A DNA stretch of 64,000 nt from Pseudogymnoascus verrucosus (lineage: Eukaryota): assembly GCA_001662655.1 (NCBI GenBank), contig KV460219.1. One strand, given 5' to 3'. The stretch's first letter is position 1, and every line of letters begins with the position of its first letter. The position numbers and the translations under genes were made by a program. Under the pieces are notes generated by a model. That model did no database searches. It worked only from the letters and a program-made list of their open reading frames with translations, and was not told where the DNA came from. Positions 6,114-59,720 of this stretch are shown piece by piece.

Positions 6114-7243
6114 ATGGCTCTTATCCATGATCATTTACCTCCACCCGACTACGCGTCGCGGAAAGTACCTCTGATCGCTTTACACGTATTTTTGGTGTTG
6201 TTAGCTTTGACTTTCTATGGCCTTCGAATATACACACGTGCTCGTATCCTTCATAGTATCGGTACCGATGACTGGCTTATGGGAGTTGCGCTGGTTAGTT
6301 TGTCTTCTACATTGCTAGTTTGGTGCACTCATTCTCTGGAAAGCTTTTTAGTATCGCACTGGTGATCAATGCCTGTATTAGTACCAAATTCGGCTGGGCC
6401 GGACATCTCTCTGCAATCCCATACAAAAACTTAAGCCCTATCCTTCAAAACATCTGGATCTCCGAGCTCTTGTTTACTCTCACGACATCACTCGTGAAGA
6501 TTTCCATCCTCTTATTTTACCTTCGTCTCGCCGTCACACCGACCTGGAAGAGAGTGATATATGGAAGCATTGCGTTTATTGTCGTCTGGACTATTGCGTT
6601 TTGCTCCCTCATCATCTTCGTATGTATTAAATCGAACAGAGCGGAATGTGGACTGAACGAGTTGTAGCAATGTACTCCAGTGAGCGATTATTGGGATCCA
6701 ATTTCTACGAATTGCTACCCCGCTGAGATAGCTCTTTTCACACACGGACTCACCAATACGATTACAGACATATACGTCTATGTCTTACCTATGAAACTGG
6801 TCTGGAAAACAAACTTACCGAAAAGGAAGAGAATCGAATTAGTGATCATCTTTGGAGCTGGTTTCTTGTCAGTCTCAAATTGACACCCTTCCTTAAATAG
6901 ATGCAACTTTGTTGACTTTAATAGGGTCTGTGTTTCTGGTGGGCTGCGGCTATATTACACGATTCTTACCCAGACGTCTGACGACAGCCCTTGGATAGGC
7001 TTCGCCATGTATACCTGGGAAGCCACGGAGGTGAACCTAGGTATAGTCTGTGCATCTGCACCTCCTCTCAAGGCACTCATCAGACACATCATCCCAAACC
7101 TCAGGCTGTCCCGCACTGATAGCACTGCTAGAGGCGAAAGACGAAGTCGCGCTAGGAATCCATTCAGGATACGAGAGGAAGGCTATATTCCGGATAAGGT
7201 TCGAACGACAAGAGATATGGAGTGGGTAGGTTGCGAGAGTTAG
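6114..7243 (+). CDS. Pth11-like (fungal rhodopsin-domain) 7TM integral membrane protein without CFEM; multi-exon
   Basis: Family motifs LRIYTR...GTDDWLM, KISILLFYLRL, TNTITDIYVYVLPM...W...LPKRKRIEL..IFGAG and WEATEVNLGIVCASAPPLKAL. Confidence 0.85.
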
Positions 7244-8141
7244 GAAGGCCAGGCGAAGTTGCAGCTGTACAAGATTGATGCAAGTCAGCGGGTGTGACAA
7301 CTTAGTTTTAGAAGGCAGTGCATGATTAACTGGGAGTTGAGAACTACTGTGCTTAGGCTTTTATCCCTACAAAGGTTTTCCTAAGGTTGTAATGATAGGA
7401 CTACTGCAGCTGTATGACAGAGCGACAGCCAACGCAGAGTGCTGAGTCTACCTTAATCATCGGCTAACCATCTCTCGTCTGTAAACGCTCGTAGACCTTG
7501 CTCATCTCTGAGTGCGGGGACTGTGGTCGCCTACAAAGTACAGGAAATAATGGCGACGTTGTACATAACGCTGAAAGAAGGTTTGTGCAAGCCGCGAAAC
7601 TCAGAAGTTGGGAAGCGGAAACTAGAAATCCTGATCCTGAAGCTGGGCATCAACATTTGGGTCGCTAGAGAAGGAAAAACATACGAAAAGCAGTGCTGGT
7701 TCTTGGTTCCCCCTATCTCCTTCCCATCAACAAGCTGCTCAATATCTCGGAGTAGCTCCGTACAGCGACCCACGATGATATCCACATAAATCTCCAGCCC
7801 CATATTCCAAGGCTGCTTGGTCGGCGAGTAAAGTCCTCGGAAGGGTGCCGAATCAAGCCGAGCCCCGAGAGAAGCCAGTCCATTCGCCGAGAACCAATCG
7901 ATGAGCCCTAGCGGGAGACGGTCGCCAAACCGAGTCAGGGGTTTGGCGGGGGTGGGGCCGAGAGGGGTGGATTCTCTCCCTTTAATGCAAGGCTCGGCAG
8001 CCTTCCGTGGAGTACAGTTCTGCTGCACATATAATGGAGCGAAGACATGGCGTGAGCATCAGGGAAGCGCCGGTGTCGCGGAAAAGCTTGGTTATTTGTC
8101 GATATGATAATTTCATAACCCTAACCCACTTCGCTTCCACA

Positions 8142-8618
8142 ATGCCTCCGCCAGTACAAGTCGCACGCAGGCGCATTTTAGAACCAAAGATTGGTGAGAA
8201 TGGCTACCAAGGCTTTCAGCCAGGGAAGTCTACTGTACTTCCGGCTGGTTGGAATGGGCACAATGCGAAAGCCCTCAAGAGCGACATTCGGGTCGACCAC
8301 GACGTCGAGATAGTGATGCACGATGGTGTTAGGCTTTACGTCGATATCTACCGGCCCGAAGGCAGCACCGAGAAGATCCCCGCAGTTCTCAGTTGGTCAT
8401 TTTACGGCAAGAAGTACAGTGCCCTCGAAATGCTTCCCATGTGTGTCTGGAACTGCTGTGTTCCCCGGTCTGATCTAAGCGGTACCGAAAAGTTTGAAGG
8501 GTTGGATCCTCAAAAGTGGTGTCCAAAAGGATATGCAATTGTGAGTGTCGACACTCGTGGGGCTGGAAACAGTGACGGGGAGATTGGATATATTATGGCA
8601 GATTTCGAGATTGGCTAG
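8142..8618 (+). pseudogene. 3'-truncated CocE/NonD family (peptidase S15-like) hydrolase; only the N-terminal part remains
   Basis: DVEIVMHDGVRLYVDIYRP...PAVLSWSFYGK...FEGLDPQKWCPKGYAIVSVDTRGAGNSDG matches CocE/NonD. Similarity stops at ~8588, before the nucleophile G-x-S motif. The convergent MFS ends at 8916, leaving no room for the rest. Confidence 0.8.
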
Positions 8619-8915
8619 TTTTACGAGGCTGGTAACGATTCCTACCGCGATTACAAATGAACAAGAAACTGGAATCGGAGTCACCCGAGCTAGAAACGTA
8701 CTGCTACGAGCTGTGCTAGCACTTCTCTTCCTCCTGTTTTTTTCTCTCCCTTTCCCTAGGCCAAGTCACATACATAGGGCTGTATCTAAGCGTTTGACTC
8801 TAATATACTGCAATTGCAGCACCCCTTCAAACATCGAAAAGGGAAATTGTTGCCAATAGATTCTAGTATTAAAGGACTAACACTCCTGCCTGGCCGACTT
8901 ACGTTATACAAATCT

Positions 8916-10616
8916 TCATGTAGTCCACTTATGCGTATTATTGCCAACCATCTTATTATTCAGTCTCCTGTAGTAGATGTGCAGCCCAAAGCTCAAGACG
9001 CCACCCAGCACCAAGAAGCCAGCATTGATAGCATGGCCAAGTCTGTAGGCCGGCTTGTCCTTCGCACGGTAAATCCAGACGCCAATAATTTGACCGGGGC
9101 CAGTGAAAGCGATATTAAGACCGGAGGCCAGGGATCCTGCTGTCGTGGAGCGGACATTGTCAGAGACCCAAGCACAGAGCGGCGGGAGACCACCGAAGAC
9201 ACCGCAAGTGGAGAGTACCAAGAAGGCGTAGCGAGCTTTATACGCGTCTTCCGCGAGAACGGCTAGAGTCGTGTCAGTAAGTGTGTTTATTTGAGAATCG
9301 CTATATATTTGCTGACCTTGAATGATAAATGAGATTGCACCAATACTGAAGCATATGCCCGCGATGAGGCCTCGGGTCTTCTTATAGTCTGAGTACATGG
9401 CCACAGCAAAGGTAACGACGTAGGCGCAAGCGTATGGTGGGACGGTGAACAGCTGCGCCTGAAGATCCACGTAGCCAAGCCCAGCAACGATTGTGGGCGA
9501 GAAGAGAGAGAGCGACGAGACACCGACACCCAAAGCCATATATGTGACGTAGTGAACCCAGAGACGAAGGTCTTTAAGAGTCGCCTTTGCGTCCGCCCAG
9601 TTGAGCTTCTCCTCACTGCATGATAGTCAGACAAGCCTAGAGAGGTCACAGGAATAGACCCACCCTTTAGAGCAATTTGCACCCATTCGTGATTCTTGGA
9701 GAAGTTTTTCCTCGGCGTTTAGCCAAGTCACAGTCTCTGGATATTGAGGAAGGAAGAAGAAAATAAAGATGCCACAGATGATGGATGGTGCACCTTCAAT
9801 AATAAAGAGCCATCTCCAGGCCTCGAGACCGCCGACAAGGTTCATGTGTCCAACACCATATGCAATAGCACCGCCAAAGGCACCGGCAAGAGTCGCACTG
9901 CAGAGGAAGCCAGCGATTCTAGTTGCCCGTTCATGCGGACGATACCAGAAGCTGAGGTAGAAAATCATACCAGGAAAGACTCCAGCCTCGGCAGCCCCGA
10001 GAAAGAACCGAAGAACAGTGATAGTGGCGACGCTTCTGGAGCCCGCGATACCAGCACAGAGTGCTCCAAAGGCGAAGACTAGGAAGCCCAACCATCTGCG
10101 CTTGCGTTAGTCTGACATACCTCGAACTGTCGCCGACGCAGCCTACCTAGGCGGTGAAAAGATTTTCATGGCGAGGTTGCTGGGAGCCTCGAATAGAGAG
10201 TATGCAACAAGGAAGACCATGAGGGCGACTGTGTACTCATATGTGGTCATATTGATGGAGCTAAGAAGATCATCTTTGGTGGATGAATTGAGAATCTTTG
10301 CGTTTCCTTGATATAAGTTAGAATTTGTTGCCGTGATGATTTTGTGGCCACACTTACCAATGTTTGATCGATCAAGGTAGCATAGAAGGTAAATTAGCGC
10401 CGTCGCAGGCATGATCCGCATGTCAATCTTTCTCACGAGCCTGTCAATACTAATCAGTGATATGTTTGAAATGAGCAACAAAGACACCCACTTCTTCTCA
10501 GCTGCTGCAGCTGCTACATCAAATTCAGCTTCAGCTTCAATCTTGCCATCTTCAACATGGTTAATGCTGCCGTCCATCCCATCTTTTTCAACAGGGAGCA
10601 CAAGAGTAGCGGCCAT
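8916..10616 (-). CDS. MFS transporter, allantoate/nicotinate permease (DAL5/TNA1-like, anion:cation symporter) family; multi-exon
   Basis: Motifs LVRKIDMRIMP, LDRSNIGNAK, FEAPSNL, RFFLGAAEAGVFPG..FYLSFWY, WRWLFIIEG and QLFTVPPYA. Confidence 0.9.
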
Positions 10617-10782
10617 GTGAGGCAGTATTAGACGAATGATGCTAATTTTCTAGAGGAGTAAATTTTTGGCTTGCGTCGATAGCTGTCAAACAAATATTTC
10701 GTAGTGGCCCGTCAATATAGTACTAGACGGAAAGGCATTTTGATGGACACGACCTCCCTTAAATCCAGACATAATGAGATGA

Positions 10783-10817
10783 GGGGAACCAAAGAAGAAT
10801 CTGGGGTAATTGCGGGG
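10783..10817. promoter_or_regulatory. CreA/Mig1-type SYGGRG sites upstream of the MFS gene, in a GGGGAACC-TGGGGTAA-TGCGGGG arrangement
   Basis: CTGGGG at 10801 and GCGGGG at 10812. The same ordered triad recurs at 13821-13868. Confidence 0.45.
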
Positions 10818-11185
10818 AAGAATTAGGGCGTGCTGCTAACCCGAGAACCACTACTAGCCTGAGAACCAAACAATTACTGTGAACCGAAACGCGATACCCG
10901 ACCTCTAGCTTGATTTATGACAATTCACGCGATTGGATGGAATAGAAACACTAGTCCCAATGATTCGTGTTCTAAGCAAGCGAGTAGAGAGCCTTTACGA
11001 CCACATCAATATTCCCGGTGCGGGGCCTCAGATATTACTATGGGGTTCGGACAGCGTCCGGCAGTCACTAACCAAAAAATTGGCCGCTCTTTGTCCCGAT
11101 GAATACTGTCCGCGCCTATCAGAACAATGTGAAGAATTTAGACCTAGGCAAGCATATATATCATGACTATACAGTTCACCATTAT

Positions 11186-13545
11186 CTAAATAATGGTGAA
11201 CTGACACCCGAACAATTCTTGTGACAAATACTTGCCATCAACACGAGCCCCTGTCTCGTTTTGCCGTTTAACTAATTCGTTCAACAATACCGAAGCTCTG
11301 ATGGCGTTTTGGGCGCCTTTCTGTCCCAACCTATATGGTGGCAATGAATCACTATGTTGTTGTTCAGTATCTGGGGTTGCGGTTCTCTCTCCTAGGAGAC
11401 GAAGTTGTGTAACGGACCACTGCTGTTTCTCCCCTATTTCAACCTCGCAGCCAAACATAAACATCGGCCACATCAAACCCGGGTGGATCACTTTCTGCCT
11501 GTCCATTACTAACAAGTGATTGTCCTTATTGTCCTCTGTCTCCCTAACACTTCGGCACATCATTCGCCAAAATTCATCGAGCGCCTCCTTGGCGGTGGAT
11601 GAGTGAGGAAGGCCCCACCAAGCCACTCGATGTATGTAAAGAAAGTGAGCCCAAAACGTCGCAATGTAGACCGCAAAAAGTTCGTCCAACCTCTCTGCAA
11701 TATCTTCACATACAACCCCAGAGAGGTCCTTTGCTGTCAGATCTAGCACGCGCGGACGTTGACGCCAAAGTTTCTTCAACTCCGTATCAATAGTTTTACA
11801 GGCAGTAACAACTTCGTATTCGTCCTCGACGGTGTTTCGTGATCGATGGTGACGGTCATGAGTTCCAATTTTACGACTATAGCTCTGCGAAACTAGGTGA
11901 AATTCTAATGCAGGCTGCATTATCGCGTTGAAAACGTTCATTTTGATTTCGCGAGGAGTTATAAACGAACGTGTTGGGAAGGACCGAGATGACGCTCTCC
12001 TCTTCCTTTCTTGGGTGAATACAGCCGCGGATCCATTCCGGCTGTCTTCTTCGGAGTCGTTGGAGACGGTTTCGTTTTCTGAATCGCCGCTATCCACAGT
12101 ACGATAGCTTCTCTCGAATCGATGTTGCAATACAACCTCCAATGATTTTGGCGTCAGAAGTTGCCTACCTCCCAAGTGGGATGCCTTAGCATCAAATGAG
12201 TTTAGCCATTGGAGTAGTCGCCGGGAAGCCGAATTCCACCTGGCGCTCCCCCTGATCACTGATTCGGCCAACTCAGTTGGGAAGTTAGACCGGTGAGCGT
12301 CCTGCTCATCACAGATAACCTCAAACCAAGCCAGTAGAAAGATTGCTGCTAGAAGAGCATTCTGAGACTTTTCATCAATTCTTCTTTCTCTTAGCCCCAT
12401 ACACGATCTCTGTTGTAATTCAAACGCCATTCTCCATTGAGAGCTACTACTCGACCGCAGCGTGGACTCACAAACCGAAAAGAGTTGCGTCAAAGCAAGG
12501 AGGGCGTCCATAACAACGCTATGAGATGAGGCTGTTCGAAGAAGATACTGTTGCATCTGATACCAGCCAGCAGGGTCAACTGATACCAAAGATGCTGGAG
12601 GTCGTGTACTGCGCTTAAAGTATGTGATTAGGTATGCTCGCGTCTCGTCTTTCAAAGGCAAGAAGTCCATCTCTGTTGTGATTTGAGCGTGAGAGTCCTT
12701 GGCTGCCGTTGAACTTGCAATTGGCATTGCGTTGTTTCCATTAGAAGGTAGATTCGGAGGGGATGCATGCATTCCACTTCTTCCCTGCGACAACGCACTG
12801 CCATGAACTAGATTGAAGTTGTATGGCACTTCTGACCCGGGAAAGGCCTGGGAATCTGAGAAGGCGAAAGTTGCGAAAGTAGAGCCTAAATTAGGAACAT
12901 TGAAAAAACCATCGAAATTGGGTGGGCATAGCGAGGTGTCCATTGAAACCGGCATAGCTGTGGCAGCGCCATCTACACTGTTGCTGCTGCCGTTGTGATT
13001 TGCATTGGAAGGTGCTTGATATTGAAAGGTGGCATCGCCCTCACTCTGGTTAGAGAAAATTTGCTCTGGTGCATAAAAGTGTTCGTATGGAGTCGGCGAG
13101 GGATACTGGCCAGCTCCTAGAGTTGTACCTGAGCTTGGCGTGACTACGACTTCTTGTCCTTTCGCTGAAGGCTCTCCTGATGGTGTATTGGGAAAACAAG
13201 AGGCTCCTGTTGCTAAAGTCGCCTGTAAATAATTGAAGTAAGGGATGAGAGTGAAAGGTAATATATACCTGAGGTTTGTGGGGACCCTGGAGAATTGCCG
13301 TTTTGAGACTGCGAAGGGCTATTCCTTATCTCTGCGTTCAATGACGCGGAAGCCGCAGACGATGCCGCACGACTTCTTCTAGGCGCAACTGGCACGTAGA
13401 CACAATCTATGCGCAGTCTTTCGCAGTTGTTGCAAATTGGGCGATGTTCATCACACCTTACGCGTCTGGTCTTGCACATAGTGCATCCATTCCGACTTCT
13501 TGGCCCTGACCTGCCGAAGCCTGTCTCCCTGTTAGATATAGGCAT
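11186..13545 (-). CDS. Zn(II)2Cys6 transcription factor with Fungal_trans_2-type C-terminal domain
   Basis: RSRNGCTMCKTRRVRCDEHRPICNNCERLRIDCVY zinc cluster, one short intron near 13213-13268, then a long ORF with LLAAIFLLAWFEV and HPGLMWPMFMFGCE. Confidence 0.9.
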
Positions 13546-13820
13546 GGCATAAACGTGTCGAATTTCTTAGAGCAGACTCTTAATAATTGCCGTTATTCTT
13601 TTAAACCTCGAATCTGCTTACGATGCTATACCTCTTCGTCCGATGGTCAGCGGCTGTTGGCAGTGTCGCGAGCTATACAGCTCTCACCATAACGAGATCC
13701 ACTGGAGCAGTCCAGAATCTAGAGACGGCAGAATATCGATGTATCTCAGATGGGTTATAGTTAAGGATTAGGCAAGGAAGAGGCACTGGGTTCAACGAGA
13801 ACAATGGTGGATAATCAAAA

Positions 13821-13868
13821 GCGGGGAACCGAAAGCGAGAAGTGAAAGGTGGGGTAACGAATGCGGGG
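13821..13868. promoter_or_regulatory. Three CreA-type SYGGRG sites upstream of the cluster TF
   Basis: GCGGGG at 13821, GTGGGG at 13849 and GCGGGG at 13863. Confidence 0.45.
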
Positions 13869-14028
13869 GCTCGCTTTTGAAGTTCAATAGTTTCGTTGCG
13901 TCACTCACAAAACGTACTTCGTACAATACTAGACTCTAACTAGTGCTTAAATCACATGATAGTAGCTATAACAGCTGTATTAGAAGGAGGGAAAGAAATT
14001 AGATTCCATAGGTTACATTAAGAAATAT

Positions 14029-15552
14029 CTATAACAAAGCTCTTTCTTGGTAATCGTCGCCATGAATAACCCAAGGCAAATGTGCCGTAGCCCACTTCGA
14101 CGAGCCACCACTGCGCGACTTAACAGCCTCCCAATCTGCTTTACTGATGCTACGTGCCTCGACAGCAGGATTGTATCCTAGCCTATGCCTACCATCATCT
14201 TCTGCCTTGATATCCTCGGCTTTTGGCACGGGCTTTCCGTCAGCGCGCTTGTAAATGGTAACAACAGTTGCTCCTCCTAGGCCCATGTTGTGCTGGAGGC
14301 AATACTTGGTCTGATCAACGGCTCTTGTGGTAGCCCAGCCTCTTAAATGCCATACTGTATGGTGTTACTATATGAGTTGGGCAGGCCAAAATCGGTGTTA
14401 CATACCAAGTTCTGTGCATTGCGCCAAACCAGTGGCTCCTAATGGATGGCCCTTTGAAATCAGGCCGCCGCTTGGGTTCACGATCCAGCCCTTTCCATCT
14501 AGACCAACACCACCGCCAGGTCCGTATGAAATTCCTCCGTCTTGTACCAGCTTCCAGGCTTTCCCTTCGTCAGCCAACCCCAGCCCTTCAAGAGCACACA
14601 TCTCGTTAGTCGTAAAGCAGTCGTGTAATTCGACGATTGTGACATCTCTCGGTGTGATATTAGCTTGTTTGTAAGCCTCCTTTGCGGCGAGCCTGGTCAT
14701 ATTTGAGCCAATGAGCTCAATGGCACTTGGGGGCTCAAAGAGTAGAGGTGTGTCCGTTGACATGGCCTGCCCTGCAATCTGAACGGCGGATCCAGCAAGA
14801 TGAGGATGCGATTTCAAGAATTGTTCCGAGCACACAATTGCAGCTGCCGCCCCGGTCGATGATGGGCAACATTGAAGACGGGTTATTTCCCCTGTTATAA
14901 CTGGGCTGTTCATAACTTCTTTTGTAGAGACAGTCTTCGCAAGCTGGCTGTATGGGTTGTTAACGCCGTGGGCTCTGTTGACCGACGTGATCTTTGCAAA
15001 GTGCTCGTTCTTGGCTCCCGCATTGCCATATCTTTGCAAGTACTCTGCCTGAGCATTCGCATATAATTGAGGAGTCCAACCAGGAGACTTCTTTCCCTTA
15101 TCTGCTTCCGGAATTAAGGTCTTGGACAGGTCGAGAATCCTTGAAAGAGGGTTTGTTCTGTCGTTGAAGATTTGAGGAAGCGCGCCAGGGTACATTTTGT
15201 CGAAACCGATGACCAAAACACATTCTGATTGACCTGATCGAATCGCTTGATTTGCCAGGTATAGACCAGTACTTCCAGAGCTGCAGTAGTTATTGACATT
15301 CGTGATAGGAATTCCGGTCATACCGAGAGCGTAGAACACTCGTTGCGCACAGGTTGAGTCGCCGAACACATAACAGCCAACTCCCGAGTCAACATCGTCA
15401 TATGTGAGTCCTGCATCCAATAACGCCTTCACCGCAGCTTCGACTGCTAAGTCGAAATAGTCGGAGTCTGGGTTTCTAGCAGATTTGGCAGAGTTCTTTG
15501 GAGACTTAAATGGGGTCATGCCCACGCCAGCAATATATGTTGGCTGCGACAT
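14029..15552 (-). CDS. SCP2/SCPx-type 3-ketoacyl-CoA thiolase (non-specific lipid-transfer protein-like) without SCP2 domain; 2 exons
   Basis: NVNNYCSSGSTG (catalytic Cys), the HDCF fingerprint of SCP2 thiolases, GHPLGATG, and LQHNMGLGGA after an intron near 14360-14405. The protein ends in ERALL. Confidence 0.9.
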
Positions 15553-15768
15553 GATGAAGGAAGACGTTGTGGGAGAACTTCTATGATTAGAAAAGAAAAT
15601 GCAACGTAGAGAAAGAAATTAAAGAAAAAGCTCAGGAAAAGAGGCATCAAGATATGGACACCCGCACAAAGAGAACCATTAGAACTACCTCGATCCGATA
15701 GATCTATAATTATTTTCCACCATCATCTTCGTACTCAACCCCGATAGGATCGCCTCGTGCCTTCGAAT

Positions 15769-15899
15769 GCGGGGATCAAGGCGGGGTTTCATAGTAGACG
15801 ACACCCGACACCCGACACGACACGACAACGACAGGCGAGCAAGCACCACCATCGAACCTCGTCAACAACTAGTATACGGAAGACTGCGGGGTTGCGGGG
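15769..15899. promoter_or_regulatory. Four GCGGGG (CreA-type) sites upstream of the thiolase
   Basis: GCGGGG at 15769, 15781, 15886 and 15894, arranged as two close pairs. Confidence 0.5.
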
Positions 15900-16277
15900 T
15901 AAAGTAGGTCACGAAGTTCCTGAATTCGCGCCGCACAGAACAGCTTGGACATTGATGGCCGTGTACGGAGTAAACGCTTGCCGCTCGACGTAGAGTCCTT
16001 GAGGCAATTAAGATAACTATTATTGATAATGAAGCATTCTCAAAGGAAAGGTCGCTTATCGCGATGCAAGATGGAAAGGCGCACGCTACCTTGGCTAAAC
16101 AAAAGTCTCGCTTCAGGTACTTGTACTTCGGGCACGAGTACCACAGCAACGCAGAGCTTGAACAATCGCGAAGATCACCCAGCATTGCCGTGGTCAGTTT
16201 ATGAATTCTACGGGCCTATATGTCTATAATTCTATGCCTACCAAAGCTCTATCGAGCCCGCGAAAGGAAGCCGTTAA

Positions 16278-17157
16278 TCATATCCGACTGGGCATTCGGG
16301 TCGCTCCATCAATTCTCAGCACAGTGCCATTCAAAAATGAGTTCTCCAAGATATGTTGAACCAAACCCGCAAATTCAGACGGACGTCCAGCCCGATCTGG
16401 GAACTCTAATACTCGCTGGAGACTTTCTTTTGCCTTCACAGGCATGTTGGTTGTCATGCCCGTCTCAAACAGACCAGGAGATATCGATACAGCGCGAATA
16501 CCGTGCCTCGCCAGATCTCTTGCCATTGGCAATGTCAACGATGCGATTGCTCCCTTCGCTGCGCTATATGCGACCTGACCGGGTTGACCGTCAAAAGCTG
16601 CTGCAGATGACACTGTGATCACGACCCCTCTTTCTCCGCCCTCATCCTTTTCTTGAATTGCGATATGAGGCAGTAGTTGCCGTATCACATCGATTGTGCC
16701 AACAACATTGATATCAAGCACCTTCTTGAAGGACTCTATTGAGAATGGTGTATTATCCTTTCCAAGGATCTAGAAAATTGTCAGAATGACAAACATTAAA
16801 CGCTTTGCAATGACTCACTTTAGCAGGGCCGAGTATACCTGCACAGCAAACAACTCCCCCAATATATCTCGTTATGTCACGCTTCCATGACAAGATCTTC
16901 GTGATAGCGGCTGTAATATCGCTAGAATTCGAGACATCCACTCTGTAGAATCGAGCCTTTGACCCTAGCCGACCTGCAACATCCTCTTTATCGTGAACAT
17001 CCATAATGGCAACGTATGCTCCATTGGCTACAAGCTTCTCTACAGTAGCAAGCCCAAGGCCTGAAACCCTAGGTGAATATTAGCTATGCCCAAGGGTCTC
17101 AGACGATAAGTAAGCATACCCTCCAGTAACAAGAAAGAGTCTTCCGTCGATCTTCAT
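16278..17157 (-). CDS. 3-hydroxyacyl-CoA dehydrogenase type 2 (HSD17B10/HSD10-like SDR); 3 exons
   Basis: MKIDGRLFLVTGG|VSGLGLATVEKL, VVCCAGI, GERGVVITVSSAAAFDGQPGQVAYSAAKGAIASLTLPMARDLA and FLNGTVLRIDGATRMPSRI. Confidence 0.9.
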
Positions 17158-17286
17158 TTTGAGGGTTCTCGTTCTTTACGGGGTTTGAATTGTGCTTTTA
17201 GAATTTGGCAGATATAATACGAGGGCCTCTAAACATAAAGAGATAGAAAGACAAAAGTCACGGCGCGTTAGACTTGTATAACATAC

Positions 17287-17579
17287 CCGAGGTATCTAAA
17301 GATCTAACCCTTGTCATATATAGCACATCAACCTAGGGAGACTTTTTCTGAAGCGCATCATTCATGGCCACTGGGGAGAATTCACGGAGTTTAGTGCCTG
17401 GAGTTGTGGAGAACGCGTAGAGTGCAGTGGTTGTGATGGGTGGCCTCTCGGGTCTCGGGTCTCGTTTCTAAGCTCGGGAGATTTCGAACCCCATATGCAA
17501 CTTATCAAATTATACATCTTGCCCACACATTGATGGAATGGGTATCTCGAGTCCCATAGACTTGCTATCCAGGCCTCGG
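17287..17579. promoter_or_regulatory. Two FarA/FarB-type core sites (CCGAGG/CCTCGG) in the divergent dehydrogenase/ligase promoter
   Basis: CCGAGG at 17287-17292 and CCTCGG at 17574-17579. There is also CTGGGG at 17371 and a CTCGGGT tandem near 17446-17464. Confidence 0.45.
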
Positions 17580-17740
17580 CTGTTGATCTCTTATAACTTT
17601 CCCAAATGACTACCTACCCCACCTTCGTGGCGGTTCAAGGTAGCGGCCTATGATTCTTATCTTCTCCGTGCTCCCATTCTGTCTTCATCTCCATCATACA
17701 TCTTTATTTTCCAGCGGGCATAACTCAGCATAGTTTTAAC

Positions 17741-19551
17741 ATGGAAACTCTAAGAAAAGAAAAAATTGCCATGGCGCGGGCGGCGAAAAATGGCGGCTCC
17801 ATAGTTCATGGACCATCACAACCATGTGCCACTGACAAAACATTTGGAAACTTGCTTAGAGAGCAGGCCCAGACCAATGGGAATGGACTGCTTGTACTTT
17901 CAGATCACCAGAACAAAAGTCTCACATACTCTCAGGCAGACAGACGAACAGATGATTTGGCGAGAGGGTTAGCTGCAATGGGCGTCAAGAAGGGTGACAG
18001 AGTTGCTGTTATGATGGGAAATCTGGTCGAATACGTGGAACTGTTCTTCGCATGTGCGAAATTAGGCACATTGGTATGAAATCTGTTGCTCTTTAAATAT
18101 CGTTCATCCTAAATACTAATGATCTCTTCCAGATTACTCTTGCGAATTATGGTTACTCAGAGCGCGAGTTGCATTCTGTCCTGTCGTCCTGTGGAACTTC
18201 TGTGCTGGTCATGGTACCTGGCTTTGACCGCTACGATTACCGACCTTGGATTCCCAGATTGAAGAGCGGAATCAAGTCACTAGAGCATGTGATTATGGTG
18301 AATGGCGAAGCAAACGATGGCGCGCATTCCATTCCCTTTGAAGAGGTCGTTCTGCAAGGCACGAAGTCAAATTTGGATCTTCTCGCCATTGAGCGGACAA
18401 ATAACTCCAACGACATCCTCAACCTCCAATTCACCAGCGGCTCAACGGGCAACCCTAAAGCATCTGCTCTGACCCACAAAGGAGTTTTCAATGCAGGAAA
18501 GCTTATAGGCGACACAATGTACCTCAAATCATATGATCGAATCTGCACTCCGGTCCCTCTCTTCCACAGTTTTGGTATCATAATCGGCCTCGCCACAGCG
18601 GCAGCACGGGGCGCATCAATCATCTTACCCAGCGAAGTATTCAACATAGAGGCAACGCTACGGTCCGTGGAGAAGAACAAGTGCACGGGAATATATGGCG
18701 TGACAACTATGTTCGTGTCAGAAATAGCACATCCCAATTTTAGCCAATACGACAAGACGACTCTTCGTTTCGCAATCGTCGCTGGCTCCGCGGTGCCGGA
18801 ACCCCTCATCAAGCGAATATGGGCTGCTTTCGGGATCACCCAAACACACACAAACTGGGGCCTGACTGAATCTTCATCTATTTGCACGATGACGAAAGAT
18901 ACCGATACAATGGAGAAGCGGACCAAGACATCTGGCCGCCTATTTCCCGGATTCTCAGCAAAGATTGTGGACCCAGTCACGAATCTCATCATGCAACGAG
19001 GGGAGAAAGGCGAGATCGTGCTTCGAGGGGCCGGAATTCAAAAATGCTACTACGGCGACGAGGAGAAGACGAAAGAGGCACACAAAATAAGTTCAGAAGA
19101 TGGTTTGGAGTGGTTCCACAGTGGCGACGAAGGATACATTGATCGTGAGGGCTACTTCTGCATCACCGGCCGCATCAAGGATATGATCATTCGTGGAGGA
19201 GAGAATATTGCTCCTCTCGAAATCGAAGAGCGACTCATGAACCATCCTGCTATTGCACAAGTCTCTGTCATTGGCGTGCCGGATGAGAAATATGGTGAGC
19301 AGATTGCGGCATTCGTGGAGTGGTCCGGTAATGGGCGGGTTCCAACTGACGTTGAGCTGAGAAGCTGGGTGAGAGAGACGTTGGCGCAGTTCAAGCAGCC
19401 AAAATATATCTGGTGGCTTGGATCGAGAAAAGAATTCCAGCTTTGGCCAAAGACCCAAAGTGGGAAGTTGAGGAAGCCAGATCTAAGGATAATTGGGAAC
19501 AGGATATTGGCTTCTGGTGTCATTCCTAATCAGATATCTGCGCGCTTATAG
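17741..19551 (+). CDS. AMP-binding acyl-CoA synthetase (ACSF2-like) with C-terminal PTS1 (-ARL); 2 exons
   Basis: P-loop LQFTSGSTGNPK, PVPLFHSFG, WGLTESS, WFHSGDEG...GRIKDMIIRGGENI and PKTQSGKLRK. Intron at ~18073-18132. The protein ends in SARL. Confidence 0.92.
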
Positions 19552-20398
19552 ACTGGCTATTTATTGACTACTCGGGGGATCTTAGCGAATCTGTGCATTA
19601 CGGTATATAGCTGTTAGACAGTAGTTTAAGATAAACCCAAAGGAGAGGGGGAGAGGCGGGAGTAAGGGACAGCTAGGATGATGTGGGGTATTGTAGTAGT
19701 ATTCTAGGTAGAGGAAAATAGCCTCTGTTACCTAAAAGCTATCGATAAAAAATTATTTTCAATCCTCTGATTCTCAGAACCGAAATCGCAAAATGTAAGC
19801 CAATTGCGTATTGGCACATATGGTGGTTGTTGCCCGGCTGCTTGGTCTGAGAAGATAGATAGATACAGCAGCTTCAAAACCCCAACTCTACGAGGAGAAT
19901 GTCTACATCACAAATACTCCGCTCCCACTGCTTTTGAAATGCGCTAATCGTGGTCGCAAGCGGAGTGCGTCTGCGAGATTTTATATTGTAAATCGATTGT
20001 GTTTTAGATAAAAATAATTATTTTATATTTTTATATTTTATGACCTTAAGTCACGTTACATATAATTTACTATGTAAAAGTACCACTAAACCACTGATGC
20101 CGGATTGTTGTTAACATATTACCGTATTCCGTTCTATATTTAGCACGCCTGGTTGCTTTAACCACCGTAACTTTCGGTTTTTGCGACTGCGAAAAGCAGG
20201 CCCTAGTTTCTCGTTTCTCGTTTCCCGTTGCTCCTTCCCTATTGATCCTTTCTATAGCCGGTAGCCGTCCTTCCTCTTCCTCTACAGGCTCTAGGGCTGG
20301 CATCATTTAAGCGTGACAAGGTAAATGCTTACTGTGCAGCAATTTTTCGGTAGGATGAACGCTAAATGTAGAGGTTACCTGCCTGTTAAGGCTTCTCA

Positions 20399-20432
20399 TG
20401 AGTTACTTATCATGAGTCACTTCTCTGAGTCA
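20399..20432. promoter_or_regulatory. Tandem Gcn4/CpcA (AP-1-like) TGAGTCA elements
   Basis: TGAGTTA at 20399, TGAGTCA at 20413 and TGAGTCA at 20426, about 220 bp upstream of the methyltransferase ATG. Confidence 0.55.
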
Positions 20433-20652
20433 CTTTAGCGTCAAGGACAGATCCGGCTTTTCTTCAAAGTTTGGAAAGGATTTTGTATAGATAAACAGCA
20501 GCCTCAAGTGTTTCCCTCTCCTGCCGACTCTAGGTATATCCCCACAAGCATCTAGTTGAAGCATCCAGTTGAAGCCGCAAGTATACGTACTCCCTAGTTC
20601 AATTTACCTTTACCAGAATCTCCCTTAAAGAAATCTCGGTACTACTTCCACA

Positions 20653-21643
20653 ATGATAGAGCCATCTGCCAAAGCGAAAGAGCTCTCACAAATATTCCTC
20701 GACAGCAATCTAGGAGGGTTGGATCACCGTATTAATCTTACTAAGTTTTGGGGAATCACACCTGGATCACGAGTTTTGGAAATTGGCTGTGGTCAAGGTG
20801 ACTGCACGACTGTTCTAGCAGACGCAGTTGGCCCGGACGGACATGTAGACGCTGTAGATCCAGGGGCGCCTGATTATGGTAGTTACACATCTCCCTACAC
20901 AACCTCCATCTCTGTGATTATGGCCCCAAAAGAGCCTATTATCTGTTATCTATTTGCTCCTTTATCTTTCAAGACATTTGCTAAATCCACAAATAGGTGC
21001 CCCCTACACACTTGCCCAATGCCAGAGCAACCTCCTCGCCGGCCCCTTAGGTTCACGCATAAACTTCCACAACACAGACCCAGTCGCCTTTCTGTCCACC
21101 CTTCCTTCTTCCGCCAAACCCTACGACTTTGTCGTTCTCGCTCACTGTATCTGGTATTTCGAGACTCCCGTCATTCTCTCTGAAATCATCTCAGCCTTGG
21201 CTGGTCACACCACCCGTCTGTGTCTCGCAGAATGGGGTCTCCGTGCTAACAGAGCCGAGACTTTGCCGCATGTTGTTACTGCGTTATTGCTAGCAAATAT
21301 TGAGGCGAAGCGTTTGACGCCTAGCACGAGAAATGTCAGATCAGTCTTAAGCCCACAGCAGATTGTGAACAATGTGGTAGAGAAGGGGAGGTTCGCGTTG
21401 GTGGAAGAGACAAGGGGGAAGTCAGGAGATACCTTACAAGATGGGTATTGGGAGGTGAGTGATTTATTAAGGAATAGAGTGAAGTTTCTAGATAGGATGA
21501 AGAGGGATGGGGTCAGTAACAAAGAGATTGGGGCATTGGTTGCTATGTTTGATAGTGTGCAGGCGGGTGTCGATATAATTGGTGGAAATGTAAAGGATGT
21601 GAAGACTATGGATTGGTGGACTGGGGTTTTTGAGGGCATTTGA
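20653..21643 (+). CDS. Class I SAM-dependent methyltransferase (UstM-like); 2 exons
   Basis: Motif I in GSRVLEIGCGQGDCT, then VDAVDPG and YDFVVLAHCIWYF. Intron at ~20879-20996. Confidence 0.85.
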
Positions 21644-22484: not shown

Positions 22485-23483
22485 CTAGGCGGCACTGTTT
22501 ATAATGCCAAACCACTCGAGGTCTAAGTTCTCGTTAACAGGGACAGTGTGTCCTACACCATCTGCAGAGTACGCCACAAACTGGGTTCCGTCGCCATAGA
22601 TAAGCTGCGTGTATCCCTTCTGCGGCGTGTTAGGGTGCTCAGAAGTCTTATTGATTCCGAACACGGTTGACCACTGCTTAATTTGCTCCCCCAAATCCTT
22701 GATAGAGACAACATTGTCGGCCGTTCCATGTAGGGTGGCAAACTTGGGTCGTCTGCCGTTGTATCCTGGATCCATGTTGTACACAATCTGAGCCCATTGT
22801 TCGCCGGTCTTGATGATATCGCCATTGGCGCATGCAGGATCCGAACTGATGGGGCTAGAGCTGGGAGAGCCGGCGAGACAGCCCGCGGGTACACCAGAGT
22901 AGCAGGTCGCAGCAGCAAACAGATCGGGATAGAGAGAAATCATAACGTTGGTCATCATGCAGCCAGAAGAGGAACCGGTGACGAAGATTTCGGCTGGGTC
23001 GGCGTTGTACTCTGATATGACGAACTTGACCATGTTGGCTAGGCCAGTGCTGTCTCCGCCTCCGTTCCTGGTCAGAGAAGCCTTCGATGCGACGTCCCAG
23101 CAACCGGTCTCATCAAGGCTGGAAGGATAAACGACGATGAAACCGTGTTTGTCAGCAAGCGATGAGTACTTCGTGAAGGCATTGTATATGGCGCCTGACC
23201 CAAAGCAAAAGTGAAGCTGAATGTTGAGTCAGCCTAACATGTTCATCTCCTATAGCTCAGAATAAAAAGATGATAATAAACATACCGCAAAAATGACGGC
23301 TGGGCTTTTAGCAACATTTCTAGGCTTATAGACCTGCATCTGCAGGTTGCTTGGGTTGTCCCCCCAATTTGTGACAGTCCTCAGTGGAGGAGGAATCCCT
23401 CCAAAAGGAAATTGGGCAACGCACTCTTGGGAGAGAAGCGCGATTGCGACAGCCAGGACGCGGAGAGAAACTTGAGAGAACAT
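22485..23483 (-). CDS. Secreted CE1 acetylxylan esterase (PHB-depolymerase-type esterase), no CBM; 2 exons
   Basis: Signal peptide, NWGDNPSNLQMQVYKP, CWDVAS, FVTGSSSGCMMT (nucleophile), LHGTADNVV and GVGHTVP. Confidence 0.9.
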
Positions 23484-56749: not shown

Positions 56750-58553
56750 TTAAGCGTAAAGCTTCTTCTCGTAGCTCTCCATGTGGATGCCACCCTCAAC
56801 CTGGGCACTGGCAGAGCGGAGTTCGAAGCGCGTGGTGCCAGCGGCAACCGAGGCGTGGAGCTCAGCCAAGCTCCTGGAGCCCATATCCTGCAAACTGTGT
56901 TTCAAGCCGGCAGACAGGTATGGGACGAACTTGGTGATCGGGCCACGGTGAGCAACCGCGCCGGAAACACCCTGGGCGACAAGGACGCTGTCACCCTCGG
57001 AGAAGTAGCGGGCAGTGCCAGCGTTGCTAGCCTGGCTGTTGGCAGTACCGGCACCGGCCTTCTTGTCTTGCATAGCATCGATGGAGCCCATGCCACGGTA
57101 AGCCTTGACGAGCTTGCCCTCGCGGGAAACGAAGGAAGTTCCTGGGGACTCGGAGGTACCAGCAAGGAGACCACCCATCATGATGGTAGTGGCACCAAGA
57201 GCGAGACCCTTGACGATGTGGCCAACGTTTTGGATGCCACCGTCAGCCATACATGGGACGCCGAAGCGAGCAGCGAACGTGGCGACGTTGTAGACAGCTG
57301 CGGCCTGGGGACGGCCAACAGCCATGACTTCCTGGGTGATACAGGCGGAACCACTGCCCATGCCGATGCGGAGACCATCAACTCCGGCAGCGATGAGAGT
57401 GGCAGCCTGCTCGCGGGTAACGACGTTTCCGCCGATAACCTCGATACCAGGGTACTTCTCCTTGACGAACTTAATCATCTCGACCTGGTACATGCTGTTA
57501 CCCTGGGAGCTATCCAAGATAACGATGTCGAGGCCGGCCTCAGCGAGCTTCTCCAAGCGGTCCTTGTCGGCGGGACGAGTACCAATGGCAGCCGCGCAGA
57601 TCAGCTGCTTGGAGTCTGGGAGCTTCGAGGAGTTGGGGAAGTGGAGGTTCTTGGTGAGATCGGAACGAGACACCATGGAAACCAGGTTGCCGGCCTTGTC
57701 AACGATTGGGAGCTTTCCCTTCTTGGACTGCGCCAGGATGGCGTTGGCCTCGGCGAGGGAGGTGCCCTTGGCAGCAGTGATAAGATCGGTGACCATGACA
57801 GATGAAACTGGCTTCTTGGTGTCTTCTTCGAATTGGATGTCTCTGTTCGTGACAATACCAACGAGCTTGGAGCCGAGATTTCCGTCCTCTTCAAAGCGAT
57901 TTGAGTTAGCAAAGTTCTTGGCTAAAATTTGAAAGCTTTGATAATAAATTTTTGTTTCCAGTCATACATAGAATTTCTCCCCACGATCTTGCGATCGACT
58001 ACGGATGAACGAAAGTTATATGGTATAGTATTGATAATCATAATGGAGACGCAGATGAATGAGATTGTTAAAACATACCAGTAACTGGGAAACCACCGAA
58101 TCCCCATCTCTCCTTCAGGGCCTTGACCTCCTCAACAGTCTGGTCCTTGCGGAGCACAACTGGGTCGAGGATGAAGCCGTTCTCGTAACGCTTGACCTTC
58201 TGGACCATCTCGGCCTGTTCGTCAGGAGAGCAGTTGTGGTGGATGACACCGAGGCCACCCTGGAGCGCCATGGCGATGGCCATCTCGTGCTCAGTAACGG
58301 TGTCCATGGGAGAAGAGACGAAAGGAGTCTTCAGGGTGATTTTCTTGGTAACGCGTGACTCAAGAGACACTTCTGAGGCGGGGAATCCAATGTAACCGGG
58401 GAGAATAAGAAAATCGTTATACGTGAGGCCTCCATTCTTGTGGGAGTCAAGCAGACTCTCAGCATCGAGGCCATCGAGCTCCTTGTACTCGTTCTTCAGG
58501 ACCTCCAGGGCCTTGGAAGAATCCAAAACCGCATCGCTTTTTGGGAACGACAT
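56750..58553 (-). CDS. imdA: Inosine-5'-monophosphate dehydrogenase; 2 exons
   Basis: [24 protein letters not shown] domains, [20 protein letters not shown] (catalytic Cys) and YRGMGS. Intron 58078-57889 joins [11 protein letters not shown]. Confidence 0.98.
57957..58047 (-). ncRNA. snR54: Intron-encoded box C/D snoRNA, snR54-like (guide for 18S rRNA 2'-O-methylation at the yeast A974 site)
   Basis: Lies in the 190-nt IMPDH intron. Terminal TCCA/TGGA stem, C-like ATGATTA (58041-58035), guide TAACTTTCGTTC (58018-58007) complementary to conserved 18S GAACGAAAGTTA, GATC-GCAA-GATC hairpin, and D-like ATGA (57965-57962). Yeast snR54 sits in the IMD4 intron. Confidence 0.85.
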
Positions 58554-59720
58554 GGTGATGCGGGGAAAGTTAAATGAACGAGAAGTGATGAGACTGGGGT
58601 ATAATAAAGAGATAGTCGACGTCTGTTTAGGTGGAATTGAAACGTATGGTCGACGGGTAGAAGTTGCCTTCTCCCAAGAGAGAAGAAAAGAAGAGAATCA
58701 GGCGTCGGCGAAGTTGAAAATATAGTAATTGGTGCGAGTGGCGCTAGCAGAAAGTTTCGCGACGGCAATTTGCGTTCACCGCCTTCCGTAAGCAGAGCTG
58801 TAATCACAGTCATACTTTGTGGTAATTACTGAGAATACCAATGTGCTGCTTTGTAATCGCCGTCAGAACGTATAAACAAGATAAAATTACAGTCACTGTC
58901 ATTGCTACTATGGATATGAGAGTATATGGGAGCTATGAGGGAGCTGGAGCGGTAGTGAGGGTGTAACTGGAAGAGCTGTATTTCAGATTGAAAAAGGTAC
59001 TTAATTCTACACACAATTTGTATGCATTAACAAGTACTATTTAAAATAAATAGAAAAAGTACTTATGAATACACTCAAATTATATGTGTAATTAAGTACC
59101 TTTTTCCCATGACCTGGAATTTATCCATTTTTTGCTAAAGCAAGCTCTTATCAGCTTATCCACCTGCAGCGTTATCGGAGCTGTTTAAAGCTGGTACTTA
59201 CTAGCACACACAAAATATACGTCTACCCAAAGTACCACGCTTAATATTTTCGTGAAACCGGCAAATAGGTTTCACCGCCTTCCGAACGCGGAACGTGGTT
59301 GCCAGACGCACGGTTGGGTTTGTTTACATCTGGCGATCACTGTTGACCTGCATCGTCAAATCAAATAGGGCTACCCTCTACCCAGTACTACCGAACCTTG
59401 CGGCTCCATAACCTCACTCCTTCTCCCCCCCGCTCTGGTTGAAACTTCCATCGCAGCATCGCATTCTGCTTCAACTTGCTCAATTTAATCAGACGCACAC
59501 GCGCCTGCTATTCATTTCACTTCTGCGCTGTGCGCTCGATATTAATTGCTGTCATATCCACACCGTTGACACGTCTACACCGTCTCCCCGAGGGGTAATC
59601 ACAAATCACAAATCACAAGTCGAAAGCGATGCAAACGCCTTGATGCGGCCTTAATTCGCGACCTGCCTTTGAGAGAGAGAACGACATCCTGGACACAATA
59701 TACACAATATACAGGACGTG

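Follow-up and report, generated by a model that had tools for sequence, protein, structure and literature searches.

Results

Five intact genes at the locus

The stretch of DNA analysed here, called the window below, comprises 64,000 nucleotides of Pseudogymnoascus verrucosus (GenBank assembly GCA_001662655.1, contig KV460219.1; position 1 is its first letter). It carries a real cluster of five genes that encode an importer, a regulator and three enzymes of fatty-acid-type breakdown. A first-pass annotation, made from the letters alone, had described five contiguous intact genes, and they are indeed intact: GT-AG splicing gives each of them a single open frame, and Pfam confirmed the families of all five. 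The genes are:

8916..10616, minus strand: MFS transporter of the anion:cation symporter (DAL5/TNA1-like) type; 6 exons, 481 amino acids; spliced model, Pfam MFS_1
11186..13545, minus strand: Zn2Cys6 transcription factor with a Fungal_trans_2 domain; 2 exons, about 767 amino acids
14029..15552, minus strand: SCP2-thiolase type-1, without SCP2 domain; 2 exons, 490 amino acids; Cys90, HDCF 310-313, GHP 368-370, clade-specific CCPSSTG; ends ALL
16278..17157, minus strand: HSD10 / type II 3-hydroxyacyl-CoA dehydrogenase, a short-chain dehydrogenase/reductase (SDR); 3 exons, 259 amino acids; TGGxSGLG, YSAAK 164-168; ends SRI
17741..19551, plus strand: acyl-CoA (CoA, coenzyme A) ligase of the ACSF2/YngI/SidI-like group; 2 exons, 583 amino acids; second possible start at 17771; PLFHSFG, NWGLTE; ends ARL

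The gaps between the five genes measure 484-726 bp, and no further gene was detected in them by a Pfam and frame scan of the window. The nearest named proteins are from Pseudogymnoascus (92-100% identity); the ESM Atlas gave only family-level names for the cluster proteins.

The three enzymes

The thiolase has the motifs of type-1 SCP2-thiolases, that is NYCSSG 88 with the nucleophile of CxS, GHP 368, HNMG 404 and, at residues 310-313, the HDCF that replaces NEAF and that the first-pass annotation had noted; the CxG cysteine is absent. Its orthologue P0510, a Pseudogymnoascus protein of 490 amino acids, exceeds the cut-off of PRK08256 (501.9 versus 436 bits). The closest solved structure by sequence search is zebrafish 6HSP, which is also the top Foldseek match of a model of P0510 (root-mean-square deviation 2.1, TM 0.94 of target). 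A role as retro-aldolase, as in Ltp2/Sal, was considered and rejected: Cys90 is retained, the catalytic Cys that we take Ltp2/Sal to lack, and the Ltp2/Sal structures rank far lower.

A homologue search that scored 8000 candidates and listed the best 120 gave 993 matches at E <= 1e-100. The top 18 of the matches listed are nearly complete in length, with 64-78% identity; below them the full-length ones fall to 50-54%, and housekeeping copies stand at about 52%. In a gene tree against the housekeeping paralogues, as the first-pass annotation had proposed, the cluster-type thiolases are monophyletic at 100/100 support, and the two other SCP2 thiolases of the genome group with the housekeeping copies. 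By identity and by tree, the cluster thiolase belongs to a fungal SCP2-thiolase clade of its own and is not a stray housekeeping copy. Directly before the nucleophile, 65 clade rows have Tyr or Trp, whereas 78 of the 79 others have Asn.

The dehydrogenase was annotated as HSD10-type, and full-length structural matches and motifs agree. All 16 PDB matches at E <= 1e-25 are SDRs, mostly named 3-hydroxyacyl-CoA dehydrogenase; human and rat HSD10 match over the full length at about 1e-60, with TGGxSGLG, Ser and YxxxK. An unclustered paralogue on contig C1 is 58% identical. Of 21 runs, none is listed as RNA; a contig of run X15, which is RNA by guess alone, skips intron 2, faintly suggesting that a relative transcribes the gene.

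The spliced ligase of 583 amino acids ends in ARL, as read in the first pass, and is closest to PRK12583 / ACSF2. It is 42% identical to the nearest SidI-like paralogue of the genome. In a tree that holds no characterised SidI, the core cluster ligases form one clade (support 100) on a branch separate from the SidI-like paralogues of the genome. Two positions, which presumably line the acyl pocket, mark the cluster ligases: Ser after PLFH (44/48 core cluster ligases, 5/5 from Eurotiales) and Asn before WGxTE (47/48 and 5/5). The other SidI-like ligases of the genome have Cys and Cys/Ser-Tyr at these positions and feruloyl-CoA synthetase has Gly-Tyr. The Ser and the Asn also occur in ligases without demonstrated clustering (44/64 and 19/64).

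Transporter and transcription factor

The MFS orthologue has D-galactonate and 4-hydroxyphenylacetate permeases as its top NCBIfam matches, both under their cut-offs (173 bits versus 395 for TIGR00893), and a PDB search with the transporter gave no match. The DAL5/TNA1 label is our assumption. The transcription factor has one intron, with an uncertain acceptor, several in-frame acceptors being compatible. It is without a close paralogue in the genome, the best other match being 30%.

Linkage in other fungi

Outside the window, linkage was judged from proximity of identifiers and from fused gene models; in a metagenome scan for neighbourhoods, 43 pattern matches led to a single locus, of 1283 bp. 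Of 24 assemblies from Leotio-, Sordario- and Eurotiomycetes, 22 have identifiers for thiolase and ligase that differ by 1-4; these 22 span Xylariales, Colletotrichum, Fusarium xylarioides, Sarocladium, Trichoderma, Exophiala, Knufia, another Chaetothyriales fungus, Penicillium, Aspergillus nanangensis and Pseudogymnoascus. In the two remaining pairs, from P. verrucosus and a second strain of C. siamense, the distance is 153 and 157 accessions. Accession numbers do not always reflect position, as VE02_05047 and VE02_05050 show with accessions that differ by 10. Exophiala oligosperma, Plectosphaerella and P. psychrosexuale, in which no ligase identifier was seen, stand outside this count. The number of independent cases is smaller than 22, because several assemblies are close kin (seven of Colletotrichum, three of Pseudogymnoascus or Xylaria kin).

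The transcription factor is tied to the pair in several ways. A fused gene model in Trichoderma arundinaceum runs from thiolase into transcription factor, the order found in the window, and one in Colletotrichum asianum from ligase into transcription factor; in C. siamense the accessions are consecutive, and in Sporothrix eucalyptigena the locus tag lies three from that of a ligase. The complete five-gene order recurs in another Pseudogymnoascus (VE04_03581-03585). Most Sordariomycetes have one unread gene between thiolase and ligase, which may be the SDR. Co-location in other genomes, the lack of which the first-pass annotation had named among the findings that would refute its proposal, is thus seen for thiolase, ligase and transcription factor. 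Since thiolase and ligase are kept together in other fungi, their pairing exceeds chance, and the core of the cluster stays together in fungi scattered over three classes.

In a quick tree, the copies of Pseudogymnoascus and of one Chaetothyriales fungus were nested among Sordariomycetes. Horizontal transfer was considered and set aside: approximately unbiased tests did not reject monophyly of the Sordariomycete (p 0.45) or Eurotiomycete (p 0.28) copies, and in a careful tree the Chaetothyriales form one clade. An old duplication followed by wide loss fits the distribution.

Promoter sites and C termini

Eight copies of a short motif lie on one strand in the cluster:

10812..15899, plus strand: eight GCGGGG sites, upstream of the genes for the MFS transporter (10812, 11020), the transcription factor (13821, 13863) and the thiolase (15769, 15781, 15886, 15894)

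The sites are 196-404 bp upstream of the three start codons. The pattern was picked post hoc, after inspection; against the 8 sites observed, 1000 shuffles averaged 0.73 and never exceeded 4, and 16 of 324 control tiles, which include coding DNA, had at least two sites on one strand. GCGGGG presumably corresponds to the CreA/Mig1 consensus, and the sites would fit CreA or the transcription factor of the cluster as putative binder. The C termini of the ligases and of most thiolases resemble peroxisomal targeting signals of type 1: the ligases end in ARL or similar and most thiolase orthologues in AKL, ARL or SKL. The thiolases of Pseudogymnoascus end in ALL and the SDRs in SRI.

A truncated hydrolase at the left edge

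Left of the transporter gene lie two further features:

8142..8618, plus strand: CocE/NonD hydrolase, 5' fragment; Pfam Peptidase_S15; homology ends at 8585, stop at 8616-8618
8582..8639, strand not assigned: last 58 nt of a dispersed short repeat that measures about 190 bp in other places; 82-90% identical copies on G000 contigs C83, C38 and C22

The hydrolase is broken, as the first-pass annotation had it. The fragment is 54% identical to residues 1-147 of a CocE/NonD family member of 592 amino acids and matches a full-length member over residues 1-148 only; the rest is absent from the 64,000-nt window, which therefore lacks a full-length protein with catalytic serine and C-terminal domain. 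A deletion junction joins CocE exon 1 to the tail of the repeat with 4 shared bases (the 4-nt overlap of the two features). In run X4, a contig holds about 3.4 kb of additional DNA between window positions 8585 and 8582, and window 8021-8127 is replaced there by 1139 other letters; a contig of run X3 extends 1780 letters beyond window 8585. By this comparison, the strain of the window has lost most of CocE (about 3.4 kb), and relatives may carry an intact CocE or another small gene in the 3.4 kb. An assembly error was considered for the end of CocE and rejected, as the junction is also present in run X2, though X2 may itself be the source of the window DNA.

The first-pass annotation had suggested that the hydrolase might release the substrate from an ester or amide, and scavenging of esters or amides with CocE as an integral first step has been weighed. 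CocE is tail-to-tail with the transporter gene and two related runs hold extra DNA after its first exon. However, CocE is truncated here and the DNA upstream of it replaced, yet the five genes are intact. No CocE match shares a locus tag or contig with a cluster gene, and none of 10 looked-up CocE clusters was tied to one, a weak count with one representative per 50% cluster; no link was seen outside Pseudogymnoascus. The link of the hydrolase to the pathway is weak, and we consider such a first step unlikely.

Flanking and unlinked loci

A second short repeat piece at window 8652-8722 shares 90% identity with a stretch that is duplicated in tandem on contig C33. Left of CocE lies a PTH11-like gene with a fungal rhodopsin domain (6299-7243, plus strand), the intron of which (6868-6924) is skipped in a contig of run X15. 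A full-length CocE/NonD paralogue of another subfamily (L018:4433-6268, on G000:C102; 57% identical to P0289) adjoins a GH3 glycosidase. To the right of the ligase, genes for an S-adenosylmethionine-dependent methyltransferase (20629-21643, plus strand) and an esterase of the polyhydroxybutyrate depolymerase family (22485-23228, minus strand) were found; related runs have matches to an AT-rich stretch near 19950-20140 at several other places. An IMP dehydrogenase gene lies at 56750-58697 on the minus strand.

Elsewhere in the genome, a second SCP2-thiolase, on the housekeeping branch with a long end branch, lies at about 11,000-21,400 of G000:C2 (L014, L015) beside genes for a flavin monooxygenase, a MaoC/MFE-2 hydratase, a P450 and a cytochrome b5 reductase-like protein. 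With its hydratase, this locus is a possible steroid or terpenoid side-chain cluster. At about 178,000-188,000 of G000:C52 (L047, L048) a SidI-like ligase stands with an alcohol acetyltransferase-like gene, a P450, a TRI101-like acyltransferase and a 2-oxoglutarate dioxygenase, a locus that looks biosynthetic.

Discussion

From the intact genes, their families and catalytic motifs, the conserved linkage and the dedicated thiolase clade, we infer the reactions, the compartment, the regulation and the class of substrate. The cluster most likely enables consumption of one particular organic acid, and it is probably an inducible peroxisomal module that performs one beta-oxidation-like round on this imported carboxylic acid. 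The MFS transporter would import the acid anion; the transcription factor would sense the acid and switch the genes on, subject to carbon catabolite repression. The ligase would then form the CoA ester, the HSD10-type enzyme would oxidize the 3-hydroxy group, and the SCP2-thiolase would split the 3-oxoacyl-CoA into acetyl- or propionyl-CoA and a shortened acyl-CoA. The substrate is most likely branched or has a polar group near the carboxyl, and would be handled poorly by the housekeeping Fox2 and Pot1. The suggestion of branching is taken solely from the habit of the family: SCPx thiolase acts on 2-methyl-branched and bile-acid intermediates, according to the text available of PMC7682436.

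Several observations weigh against this reading. The Asp of the conserved loop CCPTSDG, which the zebrafish enzyme also has and which is kept in all 79 matches outside the clade, is Thr in 36 of 37 readable rows of the clade (42 more clade rows, mostly fragments, are unreadable); in the cluster thiolase it is Thr233. The ligases of the Penicillium and Aspergillus clusters are on a different branch from the core ligases in a quick tree. Linkage of the SDR and MFS genes was seen, by comparison of identifiers, in Pseudogymnoascus only. The divergent promoter between SDR and ligase has no GCGGGG site, and the ends of the thiolase (ALL) and of the SDR (SRI) in the window are weak targeting signals. 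Because the Eurotiales clusters use a ligase of another branch, substrates may differ among cluster copies.

The first-pass annotation had argued that the missing hydratase forces a 3-hydroxy substrate. Such a substrate is possible but does not follow. The genome has 16 crotonase-fold loci, among them five unlinked ones that end in SKL or ARL, and four MaoC-type loci, and the hcsA-katA pair of Aspergillus niger uses an unlinked foxA, as far as the available text of PMC8140964 goes. The absence of a hydratase is therefore not decisive for the substrate, since the five crotonase-fold enzymes that end in SKL or ARL could act in trans. That unlinked peroxisomal enzymes hydrate the substrate, perhaps after desaturating it, has nearly an even chance; hydroxycinnamates would be one such case. 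That the substrate arrives already 3-hydroxylated is a serious possibility to which we give somewhat less than even weight, and other routes have a small share.

A self-contained 3-hydroxy-acid pathway, in which the substrate is already a (3S)-hydroxy acid, possibly 2-methyl-branched, and needs neither oxidase nor hydratase, is a narrower case of the one-round module. No hydratase or oxidase is found among the five contiguous genes in the window or in VE04_03581-03585, and if Fox2 carried out both middle steps, as in A. niger, there would be no need for a dehydrogenase of the cluster's own. Mammalian HSD10 is (3S)-stereospecific, and HSD10 and Fox2 act on opposite stereoisomers. In addition, cluster ligases of both branches share the Ser after PLFH and the Asn before WGxTE. 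The dedicated HSD10 enzyme and this signature mildly favor a 3-hydroxy substrate. On the other hand, this signature is also found in ligases without demonstrated clustering, there are the five crotonase-fold loci with SKL or ARL ends, the absence of a hydratase was read in Pseudogymnoascus only while the intervals between thiolase and ligase elsewhere are unread, and the 3.4 kb lost here could carry another small gene. Taken together, we regard the self-contained pathway as plausible but short of an even chance. Its most specific form is a more tentative proposal still: a route for a (3S)-hydroxy, probably 2-methyl-branched, acid from plants or microbes, built on an SCP2-thiolase lineage with a remodelled CoA-binding loop. 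In this form, the Eurotiales copies would pair the same thiolase with a different ligase that shares the Ser/Asn pocket signature.

The cluster could instead shorten the side chain of hydroxycinnamates or other aryl-propanoates and replace hcsA-katA-foxA where these are missing. Many carriers are, as we take it, plant-associated. Feruloyl-CoA synthetase is the top PDB match of the ligase, but a distant one (E 6e-63), and the ligase has Asn-Trp instead of its Gly-Tyr; the cluster also contains no thioesterase or ring-cleavage gene. PMC8140964, in the text available, finds hcsA-katA in Eurotiomycetes only and suggests other genes in other fungi, and separate SDRs serve p-coumarate in Rhodosporidium toruloides (PMC7873862, likewise in part). 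However, HcsA is described in the former as a very-long-chain (Fat1-type) synthetase, a family other than that of the cluster ligase. We consider this reading improbable.

Still less probable is a biosynthetic or tailoring module, in which the thiolase condenses and a ketoreduction follows, or in which the chain of an own metabolite is shortened. The related SidI is presumably biosynthetic, and the methyltransferase gene lies 1.1 kb past the ligase. However, no polyketide synthase, nonribosomal peptide synthetase or terpene synthase domain was found in the 49 window frames scanned with Pfam, the transporter is of a family that we assume to import, and the promoter sites resemble catabolite-repression sites. 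Tailoring of mycophenolic acid by peroxisomal beta-oxidation enzymes is a precedent in the available part of PMC12591190.

How does the one-round module compare to known systems? According to the accessible text of PMC8140964, hcsA and katA of A. niger are adjacent in 37 of 50 Eurotiomycetes. They resemble the cluster as a catabolic pair of peroxisomal CoA ligase and thiolase whose adjacency is conserved from genome to genome, with no hydratase named in the pair. The cluster does not belong to hcsA-katA, since HcsA is of the Fat1 type and the cluster ligase ACSF2/SidI-like; moreover, the cluster has an SCP2 type-1 thiolase plus a dedicated SDR, transcription factor and transporter, and spans three classes, whereas hcsA-katA is confined to Eurotiomycetes. 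The p-coumarate pathway of R. toruloides is likewise a dedicated peroxisomal beta-oxidation-like set apart from fatty-acid beta-oxidation, with stand-alone SDRs; unlike the cluster it has a crotonase and a dehydratase, a POT1-like thiolase and, by protein ids, scattered genes (PMC7873862, as far as available). With vertebrate SCPx / SCP2-thiolase type-1 (6HSP; PMC7682436, in part) the thiolase shares the fold, CxS, HDCF, GHP and the lack of the CxG cysteine; it differs in having no SCP2 domain, Thr for the Asp of CCPTSDG, Tyr or Trp before the nucleophile and a patchily distributed cluster. The nicotinate hxn cluster of Aspergillus nidulans is also an inducible fungal catabolic cluster with its own regulator but, in the text available of PMC5746545, has other chemistry, a C2H2 regulator and nitrogen control. 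By automatic names, the ligase belongs to the family of the mevalonyl-CoA ligase SidI, ACSF2 and YngI; it forms a separate fungal subclade with a different pocket signature, and no siderophore genes are nearby.

A description of the cluster was not found in open-literature searches, the coverage of which excludes subscription journals; 12 locus tags or accessions gave no match there. The main text of a preprint on fungal degradation clusters (bioRxiv 10.1101/184242), as available, contains neither "thiolase" nor "CoA"; its supplements could list the cluster. Together with the linkage of thiolase and ligase in other fungi, this upholds the proposal of the first-pass annotation of a conserved CoA-dependent catabolic cluster, which is apparently a variant of known CoA-dependent beta-oxidation-like modules, undescribed as such.

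Descriptions of substrates of fungal SCP2-type thiolases were not found in the open literature either. If true, the self-contained 3-hydroxy route would give a fungal SCP2-thiolase a defined substrate. With the thiolase bundled with a ligase, a dehydrogenase, an importer and a regulator, the question of its substrate is directly testable, and the cluster is present in tractable or applied fungi such as Trichoderma and Penicillium roqueforti. It is also present in plant colonisers (Colletotrichum, Xylaria, Fusarium xylarioides), and the substrate may come from plants or microbes and influence where the fungi carrying the cluster can grow.

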